From: Trichodelitschia bisporula
Lineage: Eukaryota
Assembly (NCBI GenBank): GCA_010356995.1
Contig: ML996690.1
Coordinates: forward strand, 1,334,217 to 1,398,216
Direction of reading: 5' to 3'
DNA: 64,000 nucleotides
Below, in pieces: positions 39,693 to 49,600 of the stretch; within the stretch, counting starts at the first letter, position 1, and each line of letters begins with the position of its first letter. Both the position numbers and the translations under genes were made by a program. Under the pieces are notes generated by a model. It saw only the letters and a program-made list of their open reading frames with translations, did not search any database and was not told where the DNA came from.

Positions 39693-40071
39693 AGTGGGAA
39701 AGTGGAACAGTGGCATAAAAATCTGGCAAATAGCTTGTGCCGATCGTTAGTCAGCATCAAAGAGCCATAAAAGTCTTCTTATGTAGTTTGGGTCACGTAG
39801 ATCCAATCTCATGCGCGCAGTCTTGAGCTCGTAGCCTTGCTGAACATCAGCCTTGCATGTGCTGCTTATGTAATCGCAAATCACAGCGCGGCATGGAATA
39901 ACTAGCTTCCGAGGCGGCAACTCACCTCCGTCACCATCACCGTTCACCTCACTGCATCGCACCCCAAAGATCCATCCACCATCCACCTCCACCACTCCCC
40001 CTCGCTCACCACAACTCGAATCCCCCAGTACCCCCAACCTCACATACCAAAACCGCCCATAAACCGCCACA

Positions 40072-40878
40072 ATGTCCGAACGCAAAGTCCTCACCAAATA
40101 CTACCCCCCCGACTTCGACCCCTCCAAACTCGAACGCTCCCGCGGCGGCAAATCCACCGGCCCCAAAAGCACAACCGTGCGCCTCATGGCCCCCTTCAGC
40201 ATGCGCTGCACCGCCTGCGGCGAATACATCTACAAGGGCCGCAAATTCAACGCGAGGAAAGAAACCGCCGCCGAGAAATACCTCACGATTCCCATCTTCC
40301 GGTTCTACATCCGGTGCACGCGGTGCAGCGGGGAGATTGTGTTTAGGACCGATCCGAAGAATATGGATTATATTGCTGAGAGGGGGGCGAAGAGGAACTT
40401 TGAGCCGTGGAGGGAGGAGCGGACGGAGGAGACGGATCAGGAACGCTTGGATCGGTTGGAGCAGGAGGAGTTGGAGAAGGATGCGATGGGAATGTTGGAG
40501 GCGAAGACGGTGGATGCGAAGACGGAGATGGCGATTGCGGATGCATTGGATGAGATACGCTCCCGGAATGCGCGGAATGAGATGCAGGCGGAGAAGGGCG
40601 ATGTGCCGATTGTGCGGGATGTGAGGGACGAGGAGAGGGAGAGGCAGGAGAGAGAGGATGAGGAGGCGGCGAAGAGGGCGTTTGAGAGTGCGACGGGGGA
40701 GAAGATTCGCCGGCTTGTTGTGGATGAGGAAGTGGGGGCGGCGCCGCTTGCTGCGCCTGTGACGATGGGGGGGGTGGAGCTGGGGGAGGGGGCGCCGTTG
40801 TTCAAGCGCATGGTGAAGAAGAAGAAGGATTTTGGGGCGGCGCTGGGGATTAAGAAGAAGAAGCCTGGGTTGGTGTGA
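40072..40878 (+). CDS. YJU2: Splicing factor Yju2/Cwc16
   Basis: MSERKVLTKYYPPDFDP, VRLMAPFSMRCTACGEYIYKGRKFNARKE, CTRC, TDPKNMDY. Confidence 0.97.
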   Translation: MSERKVLTKYYPPDFDPSKLERSRGGKSTGPKSTTVRLMAPFSMRCTACGEYIYKGRKFNARKETAAEKYLTIPIFRFYIRCTRCSGEIVFRTDPKNMDYIAERGAKRNFEPWREERTEETDQERLDRLEQEELEKDAMGMLEAKTVDAKTEMAIADALDEIRSRNARNEMQAEKGDVPIVRDVRDEERERQEREDEEAAKRAFESATGEKIRRLVVDEEVGAAPLAAPVTMGGVELGEGAPLFKRMVKKKKDFGAALGIKKKKPGLV

Positions 40879-41175
40879 GGAGGCACCGTGGACTGAGACT
40901 TTGGTGTACGTATTTATGCGAGAGCGTCATGAATGGTTTCTCACATCTGCAGTTTTGGACAGCACAACTCGCGCTTTCTGTGTTCATCATGTCGACCTCC
41001 GCGTCTACCTCCGGTGAATCTTAGGGATCTGGCTCAATGTTAGATTCAGAGTGTTGACGACAGAGAAGTAGTTTCTTCACTTCCCCCCAAGGAATCACGC
41101 AACGTAAAGAACGCACGGCCAGCGACTTCGGATACAAGACACTTGAAAGGACCACATTCGGACTCATCTCGGTTT

Positions 41176-41310
41176 CCCAGGTCTTCGATCTCCCGTGACG
41201 GCTCCTGGATGAAGGGTCTACCCAGGTCTTTGGTGCCCAGTGACGGTTCCTGGATGAGGGATCTACCCAGGTCTTTGGTCTCCAGATAACGGCTCCTGGA
41301 TGAGGATCTA
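41176..41310. repeat. Tandem repeat, 45-bp unit x3
   Basis: CCCAGGTCTT....GACGGYTCCTGGATGAR GGWTCTA occurs three times in tandem. Confidence 0.9.
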
Positions 41311-42281
41311 CAAGATCAGGGGTCTCTACTTCAAGGCAATCCCAAACACGGCAATTCTCTAACCTCTTTTCAGTTCCGTGTAGAGTCGAGCTTGGGCGAT
41401 ATGATGAAGGGCATTCTTGGTTTACGCTCCGGCTTGTTGCTGTACCCGTAGCCCGTTTCGTCCGAGTTTTGGCTTCCTTTCTTCAGATCTGGATGGCGAG
41501 GCAGAGGCTCCTGGGCACAAAGCAGGCTACCGAACGTCCAGTACCGCCGTTATTTCGAAATCGGGGAAGCGCGCGGTCAAGAACGTACGCGCGGGGATAC
41601 CTCTCACGCGTGCGAGCAGCTGGCAGTGTTGTCAGGCGAATACGTCTCGACAGCATACTTGGGAGTTTACGAAGAGTAGCAGGGAACGGTGGGTGGCTTC
41701 AACAGGTGTTATCTGCGTCAACCGTCAGGATCATATGGAAGTCGTCCAGCGCGATGACCCGCAAGAAGTTGTCTTCGTCGTCAGTCTTCTAGAACATATA
41801 CAGTGTTCTTTCATACATCAGATACCTAATCCAAGCATTCTTTTGCCATATCACATCCGCTCTGACAAACCGCCATAACGTCATGCCCGTTTTCTGGTGT
41901 TAACGCAGTGGGGTTCCGTTTGGTGCTCCCATACCGCCTTTCAAACACACTATACAAACGCGCCACGTCTCCGTACTATTCCCACTCCCTATTTAACCTC
42001 TTCATCCCGCCGCATCATCTCACATAACGCTTTACTTGCACAGCTCACAGCTCCTAAGAGCGTTCACATATAACTGTCACATATAACCATATATATAAAC
42101 CCCTCCGGCGGCTCCTCAGGGAAGCCCATAAAAACCACAACAGCTACTCCTACAGCACCCACAACTGTCTTCATTACTGCAACAGTCTCCTCTACCAACA
42201 ACAGTCTTCAACCACCTCCAGACGCCAAACACAACCAAACCCCCAAAACCCCAAAACGCACTCCACTCCATCAAACCCACA

Positions 42282-42455
42282 ATGTGCCTCTACGACGAAG
42301 TCACCTTCACCTGCGGGCACAAATTGGCCGACATCCGCATGAAGTGCGATAACCCAAACCAGCCTACGTGCTCGACTCGTATACACACGAAAACCGAGAA
42401 CCAGAAATGCGAGCGCTGCGGTGGTCCAAAGTATAAACTCGGCGGGCAGCTTTGA
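42282..42455 (+). CDS. Cys/His-rich micro-protein copy 1 (57 aa)
   Basis: MCLYDEVTFTCGHKLADIRMKCDNPNQPTCSTRIHTKTENQKCERCGGPKYKLGGQL*; ACAATG context, TATATATAAA about 190 bp upstream. Confidence 0.8.
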   Translation: MCLYDEVTFTCGHKLADIRMKCDNPNQPTCSTRIHTKTENQKCERCGGPKYKLGGQL

Positions 42456-42998
42456 TGTGTGCCACGGATATTAATGGGGCCTGATGGGGTGGATCTGGAC
42501 AGATGAAGTAGATTGGGGGAATGTAAAGATCGGTTCCGTTATAATGGGCCTGATGGGTAAATCTGGTCAGGTGAAGTAGATTAGGGGAATGCAAAGATCG
42601 GTTTCGTTGATGAAGGGTGCTGTGACTGTGAATGTGAATGTATATATAAACTGGCCATAGGGGGTGGTATCTATCCTAGTGGTGATATGTGAAGAGTATG
42701 TAAACCCGTTACGTCTACGCTCTATTCTTTCCCTCCATTTAGGCCCTTCCACCTCGCCGTATCATCCCACTGCAAGCTTCACTCACACAGCTTACAGCTC
42801 TCCGCAGCGCTCACATATACCGGTCACACACACTTATGTATATAGCCCCGTGCGGCGGCCCCTTAACGAAGACTATAACAAGCACATTAAACAGCCACCC
42901 CACAATCCACTACAAAACGACAATGGTCTTCAATCCTCTCCACGCACGGTACCACCAAAGACACTGAAACCGAGAAACACATTCCCACTACAACTACA

Positions 42999-43169
42999 AC
43001 GTGTCTGATCGAAATAGTCACCTGCGCTTGCGGGCACGTAGTACACGAGATCGCGCTATACTGCGACAAACCGTGCCCGCCTAGGTGCTACACTCCCTCA
43101 GGTCGGCCTAAAGCTAAATGCGCGTGCAGCGTCTGCGATCTGGAGTCCGATCGCCACAAGCGTTATTAG
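42999..43169 (+). CDS. Cys/His-rich micro-protein copy 2 (56 aa; ACG in place of ATG, so non-AUG start or young pseudogene)
   Basis: (ACG)CLIEIVTCACGHVVHEIALYCDKPCPPRCYTPSGRPKAKCACSVCDLESDRHKRY*; aligns without gaps to copies 1 and 3. Confidence 0.6.
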   Translation, partial: TCLIEIVTCACGHVVHEIALYCDKPCPPRCYTPSGRPKAKCACSVCDLESDRHKRY

Positions 43170-43706
43170 CCCGGTGAATGGCATTGCAACGCGGATGATA
43201 GGCGGTATTAGCCCTGTAGACGGCGATATACAGCACGGATTGATGGGCCTAAGGGATGAATCCGGTTATAATTTAGTAAATTAGGCGAATACAAAGATCA
43301 TTTCCGTGATGATGGGTGCTGTGATTGTTACTGTATGTATGGATTAGCTATATAGGGGGTTGGTATCTATCCCAATAGTCATGCTTAAAGAATGTGTAAA
43401 CGCGTTATAGAAACGCGTAACGTCTACTCTCTGTTCTCACCCTCCATTTAAGCTCTTAACCTCGCCGCATCATTTCAATAAGCTTCACTCGCACAGCTGA
43501 CAGCTCTTTGGGGCGTCACATATAACCCATCACATATAACAATGTATATTAACCTCATAGGCGGCCCAAAACGAAGACCATACAACCACAGCAGCTACTA
43601 CTACAACAGCCATCCCTTACAACACATTAACGATCTCCAACGATCTCTACCAATCTCCATATACTTCACACAGCTAAAGCCTCAAAAGACACTCCACAAC
43701 AACACC

Positions 43707-43886
43707 ATGTGTTTAGTTGAAGAAGTTGTGTACACCTGCCGGTGCACAATACGGCACATCCCCATATCGTGCGACAAGCCGAACCGGCCTAAGTGCCTCT
43801 CTTTTTCAGGCCACGCCTACCGGAAGCGCCGGTGCGAGTCCTGCGGTGGGGGCGTCGACCCGGAAATAGCCTGGCCGGTGGACTAG
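43707..43886 (+). CDS. Cys-rich micro-protein copy 3 (59 aa)
   Basis: MCLVEEVVYTCRCTIRHIPISCDKPNRPKCLSFSGHAYRKRRCESCGGGVDPEIAWPVD*; ACCATG context. Confidence 0.8.
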   Translation: MCLVEEVVYTCRCTIRHIPISCDKPNRPKCLSFSGHAYRKRRCESCGGGVDPEIAWPVD

Positions 43887-44327
43887 GCCGGACGATGAAT
43901 TTGCAACACGGATTGATGGGCTTGAGGGGCGAATCTAGTCGGGGTTCAGTAGATTAGGCGAATACAAAGATCATTTCCGTAATCATGGGTGCGATGATTC
44001 TGTGCAGATTGGCCGTAGGGGGTGGTGTCTATCCTAGTGGTGATATGTGAAGAAAGGGTGAAGGTATTCCGGTTGATTGACTGGCTTCTTGACGTCCCAT
44101 ATTGGCCTGCTTTTTGCCCATACCGCATGCTAGTATGTATGGCGGGGAGTAGTTATGGGTGTAGCCTTCACCCGATCGGATGTCCGGAACGTGAAAGATG
44201 GAGTGCTGCGGGCCAACCATGAGGAACATCTAGCCCAGTGCGGACTGTGCTTCGACAGACTCAGCGAGAGTCCTGTCGAGCCCCCATCTCCAGCCTCTTT
44301 GTGAAGTCGGTGTCCGGTCAGCTCGGC

Positions 44328-45130
44328 TTAACCGGTAACCTCATAGACTGGGCGGCAAATGTAGCCTAAATCGCTTCGTCGCGCGGTCCGCGGGCCGATT
44401 CTCAAACGCCGACCCATGGAGCTCAAATACAAAGTTCCTAGGCCAGTCCGGCGAATTTCCCGCGTCGGCTGCGAACGGAGGCTCCTGCATACTGTCGTCA
44501 AGAGGAATCTCAAACCTAAACACCGTGTGCTCCTTCGGGACCGCTGCAGCAATTAGCATTGTCCCTCTACACCACTCAAAACTCACTCTTAACCTCATTC
44601 CCCGGCGTAACAACCTCAAACGTAAACTTAGTATCCCTAACCACAATCCCCACAATCCCAACCCGTCCCACACACCGACTCCTCACAACCCTAACCCCCG
44701 CCCCATGAAAATCCGCCCCCGCAAGCAACGGCCCCGCCCCCTTCGCCTCAACATACCGCCCCCACACCCCCCTCTCCCCACCCACACCCAGTATCTCCCG
44801 CACATATGCCGTCCACAAGCGCCACAGCGGCACGTACACCGCGTACTTGAGCCCCTCCTCCGGGAGGGCGTAGAGCTGCAGCGCGCGCTTCTGTTTCGAG
44901 GACAGAGGGCGCGGTTTGCGCGATTTGCGCTGCTCGGCGGTTTTCTTCTCGCGGGCGAGACGTCGCTCGTGTCGCGCGTTTGGGGGTCGGTCTTCGGGGA
45001 GGGTGGGGCGGAGGAAGAGCGGTTTGGCGATGATTTTGCTTCTGAAGAGGTCTGTCGCTGTGGAGGGGTCGTGGGCGCGCGAGAGGAGGTCGAGGGCTAT
45101 GTGGCTTTTGCTGGAGGGGGTGGAGTCCAT
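44328..45130 (-). CDS. POP4: RNase P/MRP subunit Pop4/Rpp29 (intron ~44550-44587)
   Basis: KPRPLSSKQKR, PLWRLWTAY, ADFHGAGVRVVRSRC, GIVVRDTKFTF, VPKEHTVFRFE, ELHGSAFENRPADRATKRF. Confidence 0.93.
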
Positions 45131-45453
45131 TTTGGTTCTATGCCTTTGGTTTGCCGCAGAGATGGTTTCGAGGGAGGGTTGAGCACGTTGTACAGTACAC
45201 GCTTGAAAAGACATGAAGTCGCACCGGAAGCGGGGAGTGGGTCATCCCCGCGCCAAGTCTTGATACTTGGCAGGTACGATTGCTTGATTCAACGAGGAAC
45301 CAAAAAACTGGTCGTGATATGTATGAGAGATATTCGCCAGCATGCTTTCTTCACCCCTCACAATGATTTAGACTGCAAAGGCTCTTTACACCGGCTGCGT
45401 GCATCTACTGCCGCTTCTGCCAAACTCCAAACGCCAGTCTTGTCTACATCCGT

Positions 45454-46635: not shown

Positions 46636-49600
46636 TCAGCTGTCCGGGCGGGGGTTCGCCATGTCAGACGCCGTTGCGGAAACACACACGTTTTCGTCCT
46701 CCTGCTTCGACTCCCACTCCCGCTTTAGCCTCAACCCCAGATCCCGCCCAGGCAGCGGCAGTAGCGGCGGCAGCGTCAACTCCAGATCCTGCCCAAGCAG
46801 CGACCGCAGTGGCGGCAACCTCAATTCCAGATCCCGCTCAGGCAGCGACAGCAGCGATGGCAGCTTCGGACCCTGTTCGGTCAGCCACTCCGGATCCCGC
46901 CCGTGCCGCGGCGGCGGCGGCGACGGCAATGGCAGCAGCAGCATCCGCAGCGGCGGCGGCATCGGCGGCCCCTTGGACGGTGGCGGCGGCCACTTCCGAT
47001 TCCGTTCGGACGGCCATCCCGGATCCTACCCGAGCAGCGGCGGTTGGATACCCACTTCATCCACATCCACACCCTTTTTATCGCTACTCTCTTCATAGCT
47101 ACTCTCTTCATCGCTACTCTCTTTTTCTCTCCCCAGATGATCCCATATCCCCCTCTGATCATACCTCAAAAGTGCCCACACTTTCTCATCCTGTACAACC
47201 AAGAATGTGCACCAATCAGGCAATGTTGCGACTCCGTCGCGTTCGTTGAGCCATGCCCGACCTTTATTGCTAGACAGTTCACCAGCTGGCCAATCTTCAG
47301 GATCATCTCCGGGCTCATTTGTAAGATTCGTACAACTGACGTATTCCCCATCACCCCAAGATGTTAGCGAGACCTTGATCCCCCGAGGTCCGTTGAGTGT
47401 GTCGAGATAACAAAGGAGAATCTTATCGGGAATCGCTTTGTCCCCATCAAACTTCAAGTCGACTCTGTCGGTTGCATAGAGTAGCCAATAGCGGGTCATA
47501 TCTACTACTCGGGGAAGAGCGGACCGATTGTTTTTCTTAGCGAAGAGCCTCTTGAGCTTGTGAGACGGGATGGTGTCTAAGATTTGCAGCAGCCACGTGA
47601 TAGCGTCAAACCTGCAGTACAGATCAAAACCACGGACGATGGACTCGAAAAGGTGGGCGAGCAGCCATGGATCCTTCTTCAGATCCAGACCGTTCGCCAC
47701 TTTCCACTCGAGGTAGGTCATGTCACCCCTGGCAGCCAGCATACACGGGACGGGCAGGGCACCGCCCTCCCCATCAAAAAAGGTGTCCACACGGTCCATA
47801 TGAATTTCAGGTCGCGAGACAGGTCGCCTGGAGGGGTATGGGGAATAATGATGCGTGTGATACCATCGGTGAAGCGTTTCATCAAGAGCCTTAAGGAACT
47901 CCAATGAAGAGGAGCTTGCAATGCCTTCGTCCAATAGTAGATCGAGATGGCAGCCGAGTTCAATACCCAAGTCAGAAGTGAGGAACATAGAGTAGCAACA
48001 GTCGGAATCGTAGGGGATCTCGGGAATATTGTGTTTCACTTCAGCGTGAAACGTCTGCATGATGATGTTCGTGCGTTCGTAGTGTGTACACCATTCCTCT
48101 ATGGTTTGCCGTGTTTCTTGCAACTTTGCGAAGTCAAATGCAGAGCGGTGGCAAAATTGAATAGCCTCCTGACAATGTATTCTCCAGGGCCTCATGCTCG
48201 AAGCCTCAACTTGGTACGTTTCAAGCAGTCCTTTGCACTCGCTCTTGAGCCGGACGCGTGCCCGTTCCAACCGGCCAGCGTAGTCGAATGGTTTTTTTTA
48301 CGGGTATCCAAGGTCCATGGCAAAGTTGTTGTCAGAACGGAAGTCCTCAATAAACGAGAACTTGAGAAGGGAAAATGGTATGCCGAAATCTCGCGACCTG
48401 ACCCATGCCGCGAAGGAGAGAGGTCGATATGCTGAAGGTGGATCGGGAACGGAGTTCAGGAGATGTTTGAACAGCTCCACCATATCCTGCGGCAAGGCGT
48501 CGACCTTCTGCTTGAGCTGGGCAAATGTATCCCAATCCGTAAGCCCTTTGCGCAATTCCGCTATCACGAGTCTCACCCAGAGCAAGACGCCCTGGGCCCT
48601 ATCCAACATAGTCCGGAGCAGAGACTCTTTCTCTTCATTGCGGAGTTTTTGAAAGACGAGCGGTCCGCGAGGACTAAACAATCGGTCGTGTACCACTTTC
48701 GACATGTCGTCCCTCGTCAGATCTTGCATTCGAAGGCGCTTTCCCTTGTCGAATCTCGTTTCGAAGACGCTGTCCTCTCTGCTAGACACACAGATCTTGA
48801 CAGAGGGATTCTTGCCCCAGTCGAGAAGCTCAGCAACCAAGTCATTGTAATCCTTGATAGTCGTTTGCTCAAATTCGTCAAGACCATCGATAAAGAAAAA
48901 GAAGCGGCGATGACGAAGCAGTTGCTCGTCCTTGAAAAGGGGTTGGAAGGCCTCACAAATATCGTCGTGATCGATATGCAAGTCACCTCGGATATGGGGG
49001 TCAAGGTTCACTACCTGACTCCACGCGTCCGGAAGTACGCGGGAAGTGGCATCGGGCCACTGCGAAAGAACGTCGTGAAGGAGTGAGCGGAACATCCCCT
49101 CAAGCGATTTTTGAGCCTTTGAGTCAGATCGCCAGAAAAAGAAATGGGCCCTGACGAGCTTATTTTGCTTTCCACACCAAATTTGGATATTTTCTGACGT
49201 GCGTGCATCCTTTGAAAGGTATTGGATGTGTGGACTTCCCGCTACCGAGTTTTCCCATGATGTGGAAGATACCAGATCCGAACTCCAACCATTTCACAAA
49301 AGTGACACCCTCCGCATCCACTGTTGTTTTGTCCTTGAAGATCCAGTGGAATGCATCTTCATATGCGCGTGCAGAATTGAGTATATCCGACCGCATGTTG
49401 ATTTCGGGAAATGCAAGGGCCTTGAGTATACGAGCATTCGCAATGTCTCTAAGCAGATCGTTCGGTATTTTGAGGAGACTGCGCAGCTGCGCTCCAGAGA
49501 CATTGCTACCATCTATACCGTCGATTTTGGTATTCAGTTCCTTCATCATTTCCAGGAAAGATGCAAGGCCCGTTTCGTTCCTTTTCGCCTGTCCAGCGAT

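Follow-up and report, generated by a model that had tools for sequence, protein, structure and literature searches.

The repeat array and its reading frames

The 64,000-nucleotide stretch of Trichodelitschia bisporula DNA analysed here (assembly GCA_010356995.1, contig ML996690.1, positions 1,334,217–1,398,216, forward strand; hereafter the window) contains an array of three head-to-tail direct repeats of about 0.7 kb, each carrying a short cysteine-rich open reading frame (ORF). The array occupies window positions 41943–44060 on the plus strand. In the three-way unit alignment (A1), the mean column identity is 75%, and the start-to-start spacings of the repeat families are 746–747 and 706–709 nt. 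Repeat unit 1 (41943–42696) consists of a promoter block, a leader, ORF c1 and a 3′ block; units 2 and 3 are located at 42689–43405 and 43398–44060, respectively. No fourth unit is present in the 64-kb window, where blastn matches are confined to the three units among themselves. Comparisons of copy with copy using tblastn gave E-values of 8e-11 to 1e-6 and the next best match anywhere in the 64 kb had an E-value of 0.13, so the similarity of the copies exceeds chance.

ORF c1 (42282–42455, plus strand) encodes a 57 aa peptide with six Cys and two His and starts with ATG, with A at position −3. ORF c2 (42999–43169, plus strand) comprises 56 residues counted from an ACG codon and has no AUG; it contains nine Cys and three His. 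ORF c3 (43707–43886, plus strand) encodes 59 aa with seven Cys and two His, also starts with ATG preceded by A at −3, and is nested in a 114-aa ATG ORF (43542–43886), whose own ATG at 43542 lies upstream in the same frame. Residues 1–46 of the three peptides align without gaps. Twelve of these positions, C2, L3, V7, C11, I18, C22, D23, P25, P28, C30, C43 and C46, are invariant, and position 13 is occupied by His in c1 and c2 and by Cys in c3; the scaffold can be written as C-x8-C-x-[H/C]-x8-C-x7-C-x12-CxxC. The N-termini are MCLYDEV (c1), TCLIEIV (c2) and MCLVEEV (c3), with charged residues following. Cysteine totals are 6/57, 9/56 and 7/59 (10.5–16%), odd in two of the copies, and the additional cysteines of copies 2 and 3 adjoin the fixed ones, forming CxC in both and CxCxxC in c2. 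Each copy has three or four aromatic residues. None has a hydrophobic N-terminal segment: acidic residues are found at positions 5–6 and the maximum hydropathy over nine residues in copy 1 is 0.69.

An earlier, sequence-only reading of this DNA had described three direct repeats of about 0.7 kb with frames of 56–59 codons, the third hidden inside a longer ORF, and a gap-free 46-residue alignment with the same 12 invariant residues and the His/His/Cys pattern at position 13. All of this was reproduced exactly. It had also stated that the peptides lack a signal peptide, and this agrees with the sequences and hydropathy values, on which, with no dedicated signal-peptide predictor run, the absence of a signal-like N-terminus was judged. 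The description of the frames as Met-Cys ORFs is correct for c1 and c3 only. Copy 2 has ACG where copies 1 and 3 have ATG (A1 columns 341–343), and no in-frame ATG precedes it before a stop codon is reached. Copy 2 starts with Thr(ACG)-Cys, so ‘Met-Cys triplet’ does not hold for the array as a whole.

Evidence for coding

It is likely that the units are protein-coding micro-genes, or were so until recently. The 138-nt core has no gap columns in any of the three pairs, compared with 8–30 in the 140-column leader upstream and 18–53 in the tail downstream, and, of the six frames, only the plus-strand frame of c1–c3 runs through every copy without an internal stop. The 12 invariant positions among the 46 include each of the six cysteines that copy 1 contains (hypergeometric P = 9.9e-5). 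Of 20,000 copies of c1 simulated at the observed 44% substitution, 0.015% retained all six cysteines and 15.5% kept an open frame through the first 46 codons. More than one codon is used for five of the 12 invariant residues (L3, for example, is encoded by CTC, CTG and TTA), which indicates conservation of the amino acid and not of the DNA. GC content at the third codon position (GC3) is 0.72, 0.64 and 0.71 in c1, c2 and c3, versus 0.44–0.54 at codon positions 1–2; the neighbouring genes have GC3 values of 0.79 and 0.69. The leaders of both ATG copies, 181 and 154 nt in length, are free of ATG. Together with the RNA contigs described below, these features support the reading of the units as genes.

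Copy 2 has gained an upstream AUG at 42923 and three extra cysteines and has lost its own AUG. It looks attenuated or newly dead, that is, a weakly translated copy or a young pseudogene. When Neurospora crassa cpc-1 was translated in a cell-free system, an ACG codon (NCC8) served as a start, and its conversion to AUG gave a higher signal (PMC5487733). Since ACG can thus initiate in a filamentous ascomycete, a low-level c2 product is possible.

Transcripts of the units

The RNA data come from X1 and X2, a pair of small sequencing runs on a single sample that bear the label ‘RNA?’; their contigs were placed on positions 39800–45400. The contigs contain a GT..AG splice joint at 40905/40953 (skipping 40906–40952) and a CT..AC joint at 44543/44587 (skipping 44544–44586), and the depth is zero in bins 41857–42043 and 43166–43352. 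Canonical splice joints and uncovered bins indicate that both runs hold spliced RNA.

Unspliced contigs at 42136–42626 (X2) and 42194–42604 (X1) contain the whole of c1 and show a leader of no less than 146 nt and a trailer of no less than 171 nt. An unspliced X1 contig (42823–43049) covers the leader of unit 2 and the first 17 codons of c2. The whole of c3 is contained in contigs of both runs (43527/43529–44543), which are joined to an exon of the downstream neighbour, POP4, across the POP4 intron. The depths are 4–5 on unit 1, 4.6 on unit 2 and 126 and 50 on unit 3, but the contigs are strandless, with a single depth figure each, so these depths cannot rank the units, and a sense transcript of unit 3 is indistinguishable from an antisense POP4 3′ untranslated region (UTR). 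In neither run is an upstream exon spliced onto any of the units. The sequence-only reading had proposed transcription over each unit as a check of its interpretation; contigs lie on unit 1, on part of unit 2 and on unit 3, with the reservation that they carry no strand and that the unit 3 contig is joined to POP4.

Each unit has one TATA-like string on the plus strand (42090–42099, 42835–42845 and 43542–43552). The contigs of units 2 and 3 begin, at 42823 and 43529, at the same A1 column, 135, which lies 13 nt upstream of this string; no 31-mers common to the units that could break the assembly were found at the column. The coincidence hints at a shared transcript end. Because the contigs of units 2 and 3 begin upstream of the TATA-like string, its role as a TATA box is doubtful; if column 135 were the start site, the element would lie inside the RNA. 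The earlier suggestion that each unit possesses its own TATA-like element and a C/A-rich leader therefore stands as far as the strings and the leader composition (72–77% A+C) are concerned, and its promoter part is in question.

Organisation and divergence of the units

The conserved 5′ (promoter) block of unit 1 (41943–42139, plus strand) has counterparts at 42697–42886 and 43398–43612, with pairwise nucleotide identities of 68–71%. In unit 1, it holds a doubled TCACATATAAC motif and the TATA-like string 42090–42099. The leader of unit 1 (42101–42281, 181 nt) has 77% A+C and 9% G and contains no ATG; that of unit 2 (42847–42998) contains one ATG, at 42923, and that of unit 3 (43553–43706, 154 nt) none. 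The G content of the three leaders is 9–13%.

The conserved 3′ block of unit 1 (42542–42695, plus strand) corresponds to 43226–43391 and 43899–44053 in units 2 and 3 (75–79% identity). The final 44 nt of unit 1 (42652–42695) and of unit 3 (44010–44053) are 95% identical, while the unit 2 counterpart shows 61% identity; the block shared by units 1 and 3 contains AGGGGG/GGTATCTATCC and may either mark a conversion tract or serve as a conserved regulatory site where two units meet. In unit 1 only, a 68-nt piece of the 3′ region is duplicated in tandem (42487–42608, plus strand; 42487–42540 versus 42555–42608, 87% identity). Being private to unit 1, this duplication indicates that the 3′ block was still rearranging after the triplication.

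Pairwise identity is 55–57% in the coding core, 53–67% in the leader and 41–59% in the tail. The core is less conserved than the promoter block and the 3′ block, and was classed as the least conserved alignable part of the unit. Nei–Gojobori estimates are 0.61–0.67 for dN and 0.62–0.75 for dS, with dN/dS of 0.83–1.02, and the core differences are spread evenly over the codon positions (18–23 each of 46). Transition to transversion counts are 21:41, 24:35 and 33:26 in the core and 26:11, 20:9 and 28:9 in the 3′ block. The simplest reading of these comparisons is that the duplications are old, that the core drifts near the neutral rate, save for the frame and about a quarter of the codons, and that the flanking blocks are constrained or have been homogenised by conversion. 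Because 12 codons are fixed, the remaining 34 must have an above-average dN/dS; each pair offers about 30 synonymous sites, too few to distinguish positive selection from neutrality.

The array differs from its surroundings in composition. Its G+C content is 49%, versus 57% on both flanks; the TpA/ApT ratio is 0.96 (flanks 0.57–0.67) and the (CpA+TpG)/(ApC+GpT) ratio is 1.06 (flanks 1.22–1.26). Repeat-induced point mutation may have left a mild trace here, or the values may reflect plain non-coding composition. Terminal inverted repeats at the array amount to two short chance pairs, and a transposon reading of the array was dropped.

Flanking genes

The left neighbour is a Saf4/Yju2 splicing-factor gene (40072–40878, plus strand; Pfam E-value 3e-74) and the right neighbour is an RNase P/MRP p29 (POP4) gene (44341–45214, minus strand; Pfam E-value 2.7e-14), in line with the earlier assignment of the flanking genes to YJU2 and POP4. 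The RNA contigs define a 43-nt intron in POP4 (44544–44586); the spliced frame encodes 276 aa and ends at 44341. The unspliced POP4 ORF (44576–45214, 212 aa) terminates within this intron.

RNA contigs run about 950 nt past the Yju2 stop codon (40876–40878), within 40788–41846. The stretch includes a 47-nt GT..AG intron (40906–40952) downstream of the stop codon, and in run X2 it forms a separate contig with a depth of 87, whereas the Yju2 coding part has a depth of 622. Once spliced, the stretch has a longest ATG ORF of 99 aa, which is Arg-rich. This RNA could be an isoform with a long, spliced 3′ UTR, or else a transcript in its own right, non-coding or with a short ORF. Within the transcribed stretch, at 41176–41310, a 45-nt unit occurs in three tandem copies; the other two are 82% and 62% identical to the first, and neither strand has a frame that stays open through the whole set. 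Further downstream, a minus-strand ORF has a match to the NPHP3_N (NACHT-associated) domain (E-value 2.5e-7; 47026–49095) and adjoins a 389-aa ORF without a Pfam match. The two may be parts of a fungal NLR-like gene broken by introns or frameshifts.

Searches for relatives

No Pfam match exceeded the curated cut-offs, the best scores being 15.4, 14.8, 13.7 and 11.4 bits against cut-offs of 30, 27, 21.3 and 34.4. These sub-threshold matches are to zinc-ribbon-type models and cover the CxxCGG end, residues 34–51 of copy 1. The exact peptides c1–c3 and the 114-aa form are absent from a collection of 15 billion proteins. Word-index protein searches at near and longer lengths found nothing; the longer one scored 34 candidates, none of them at E ≤ 1.

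A HMMER profile of the three peptides, which the sequence-only reading had proposed as a check for homologues, was run against 1.84 billion representative proteins and gave three matches at E ≤ 0.001, 5447, 615 and 1030 aa in length, composed of 16, 7 and 6 short stretches. Those of 615 and 1030 aa were rejected as low-complexity or repeat proteins, one with C-x3-H...CxxC units and the other TPR-like; the 5447-aa match was not read. The best match in a search of PDB sequences (E-value 0.1) was rejected. A metagenome scan gave 63 pattern matches and one confirmed locus (L001), the string IRIKCDNPNCP in a 501-aa AT-rich ORF, which was rejected as chance. The ESM Atlas returned no named cluster for the peptides; unnamed Ascomycota ‘hypothetical protein’ clusters of 50–66 aa were found (scores of 0.89–0.91), with recognition below the usable level and no sequences to align, and serve as a lead only. 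Rfam gave no matches at E-values up to 1 over positions 41000–44600 on both strands. Generic word searches of the literature, which cannot show that a family is unpublished, found no description of one like this.

A profile of 57 residues is weak in a huge library, and ORFs of this length are rarely called in fungal genomes, so the missing relatives are weak evidence of orphan status. As far as these tools reach, the peptides appear to form an undescribed family that belongs to no named one, in agreement with the earlier statement that no named family could be assigned, within the reach of Pfam, the 1.84-billion-protein profile scan and the word-index and PDB sequence searches.

Proposed nature of the product

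The product is tentatively interpreted, in line with the sequence-only reading and from its sequence features, as an intracellular mini-domain that may bind metal, most likely zinc. Metal ligation is favoured over disulfide bonds by the His/Cys exchange at scaffold position 13, by cysteine numbers of 6, 9 and 7, a poor fit to a fully disulfide-bonded peptide, and by the appearance of new cysteines directly beside fixed ones. The lack of a signal-like N-terminus and of a spliced upstream exon points to an intracellular location. That the only sub-threshold Pfam matches are zinc-ribbon models at the CxxCGG end is consistent with metal binding; no sequence or structural match to any zinc fold reached significance (Pfam, PDB sequences; models at a pLDDT of 43).

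Each unit would be a small stand-alone gene composed of a conserved upstream block of about 200 bp, a C/A-rich, G-poor leader of 150–180 nt, an unspliced ORF of 56–59 codons and a 3′ UTR with a conserved block. The products would be leaderless, slightly basic mini-proteins in which selection keeps only the scaffold (the six Cys, His/Cys 13, L3, V7, I18 and a CD-P--P-C turn), and the loops drift freely. The peptide would remain inside the cell and fold round zinc. C11-x-[H/C]13 and C43-xx-C46 could constitute one tetrahedral site, and C2, C22 and C30, with a variable fourth ligand (H35, C41/C26 or H36), a second one; the K/R-rich stretch between C30 and C43 is a possible interaction surface. 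The family presumably originated in a restricted lineage through tandem duplication, after which copy 2 would have changed its ATG to ACG, gained the out-of-frame upstream AUG and become attenuated or begun to decay.

Several observations weigh against this picture of coding, zinc-binding units. The conservation rests on three paralogues of a single genome, with no relative found, and copy 2 has no AUG. A dN/dS of 0.83–1.02 and an even spread of differences over codon positions are also expected of decaying sequence. The RNA contigs are strandless; that of unit 3, continuous with the POP4 exon, may be the POP4 3′ UTR in antisense, and the depth on units 1 and 2 is only about 4–5, versus 87–780 for the neighbours. 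A start at column 135 would place extra AUGs first, namely 43542 (in frame, giving the 114-aa form) and 42836 and 42923 (out of frame, before c2); unit 1 has no such AUG upstream of its ORF. AlphaFold2 models reached a mean pLDDT of 43.3 (three-sequence alignment) and 43.0 (c3 alone), which makes them unusable, and no fold backs a zinc site. The peptide has a single CxxC knuckle, and seven conserved ligands are awkward for two tetrahedral sites.

Alternative explanations

The peptide might instead be exported despite its lack of a leader and be disulfide-bonded, as a toxin, an antimicrobial or an effector-like molecule would be, with the six cysteines forming three disulfides and the loops diversifying under selection; we consider this unlikely. 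Defensin-, conotoxin- and effector-type families combine conserved regulatory or untranslated parts with a hypervariable mature peptide. The presence of exactly six invariant cysteines, the tandem multiplication and the lower identity of the core relative to the promoter and 3′ blocks resemble this arrangement, as does an overall dN/dS of about 1, and hence above 1 outside the 12 fixed codons. However, the leader and tail have diverged as much as the core, which may simply drift neutrally. An odd number of cysteines in two of the three copies and the His/Cys swap at position 13 fit poorly with three disulfides, and export finds no counterpart in the N-terminus, with its acidic positions 5–6 and low hydropathy, or in the RNA contigs, which join no upstream exon.

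Alternatively, the units may not be coding today but may be repeated regulatory or non-coding RNA modules, or dying duplicates, whose 5′ and 3′ blocks are functional and whose ORFs are relics. The flanking blocks are indeed more conserved than the ORF, dN/dS is about 1, copy 2 lacks an AUG, the RNA depth on units 1 and 2 is low, no homologue was found, the peptides are absent from the 15-billion-protein collection, and the elevated TpA/ApT ratio hints at some repeat-induced mutation. This reading is rather improbable in view of a core that is indel-free and open in all three copies, the retention of six cysteines out of six (P about 1e-4), the synonymous codon variation at invariant residues and the biased GC3. 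The search of Rfam on both strands gave nothing to support an RNA module, and what covariation the 3′ block shows is not meaningful: with just three sequences compared, the covariation term is −0.31 kcal/mol and 2 of 37 pairs carry compensatory changes.

In a further reading, the leaderless six-Cys mini-proteins would be an undescribed, lineage-restricted family, with loops under diversifying selection and with promoters and 3′ regions held constant, and would make up a hypervariable peptide system, intracellular or unconventionally exported, and not a housekeeping zinc protein. Such peptides could, for example, act as specificity variants in conflict or recognition (killer/immunity systems, non-self recognition or the targeting of varied partners). 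We regard this reading, the suggested roles included, as very unlikely.

Finally, a metallothionein-like metal buffer whose gene has been multiplied in tandem, as happened with the metallothionein genes of the yeast CUP1 array, would suit small, leaderless, Cys/His-bearing peptides in tandem that have gained CxC and CxCxxC in copies 2 and 3, but is highly improbable, since cysteine makes up only 10.5–16% of residues, each copy has three or four aromatic residues, the copies are old and diverged (core identity 55–57%) and not recent near-identical amplification products, and a fixed, widely spaced scaffold in which Leu, Val, Ile and Pro are conserved points to a defined fold and not to a thiolate cluster.

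Significance of the locus

Fungal annotation routinely misses genes this short, and lineage-restricted small cysteine genes are common in filamentous fungi. The locus is a tidy, testable example and not a surprise: a clean, compact case of a young micro-gene family in which only the cysteine scaffold is constrained and whose autonomous units lend themselves to deletion, tagging and expression. Its weight is limited to that of one orphan family in one genome, known from sequence and RNA contigs. If metal binding is true, C-x8-C-x-[H/C]-x8-C-x7-C-x12-CxxC would be a new ligand grammar for small zinc proteins; if the loops are under diversifying selection, the locus would point to a leaderless hypervariable peptide system in fungi.

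Comparison with known systems

The peptides differ from the twin Cx9C (CHCH) mitochondrial proteins, which carry a pair of Cx9C motifs in a helix-turn-helix, in their spacings of x8 and x7 and in the invariant P25 and P28 between C22 and C30. Small secreted cysteine-rich fungal proteins include effectors and antifungal peptides of the AFP/PAF type. Like this group, the family has a six-Cys scaffold with rapidly changing loops, is lineage-restricted and tandemly duplicated, and is missing from Pfam; unlike its members, the peptides have no signal-like N-terminus, contain an odd number of cysteines in two of the three copies and show the His/Cys exchange.

In fungal metallothioneins, cysteine accounts for roughly a quarter or more of the residues, arranged in CxC and CxxC clusters, and aromatic residues are few or absent. 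The Saccharomyces cerevisiae CUP1 array likewise consists of tandem copies encoding small leaderless cysteine peptides, and the CxC and CxCxxC of copies 2 and 3 resemble metallothionein clusters. A cysteine content of 10.5–16%, the aromatic and conserved aliphatic residues and the deep divergence of the copies set the present family apart.

Zinc ribbons and knuckles (Zn_ribbon_RanBP, PF00641; zf-FPG_IleRS, PF06827; Zn_ribbon_8, PF09723) are similar in size, in the C-terminal CxxCGG knuckle, in Cys/His positions that resemble ligands and in basic character. The peptides, however, score 11–15 bits against cut-offs of 21–34. Zinc ribbons need two CxxC (or CPxCG) knuckles, whereas the peptides have only C43-xx-C46, the other cysteines being single and spaced x8, x, x8, x7 and x12. 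A zinc ribbon is a three-stranded β-sheet built round the metal; the peptide models have pLDDT values of 43.3 and 43.0.

The CSL-type zinc finger of Kti11/Dph3 is small and cytosolic and has the pattern CxC...CxxC. The peptides have three more invariant cysteines, show no sequence similarity to it and give no zf-CSL match at E-values up to 10, but the proposed site, C11-x-[H/C]13 with C43-xx-C46, would have the same ligand grammar.

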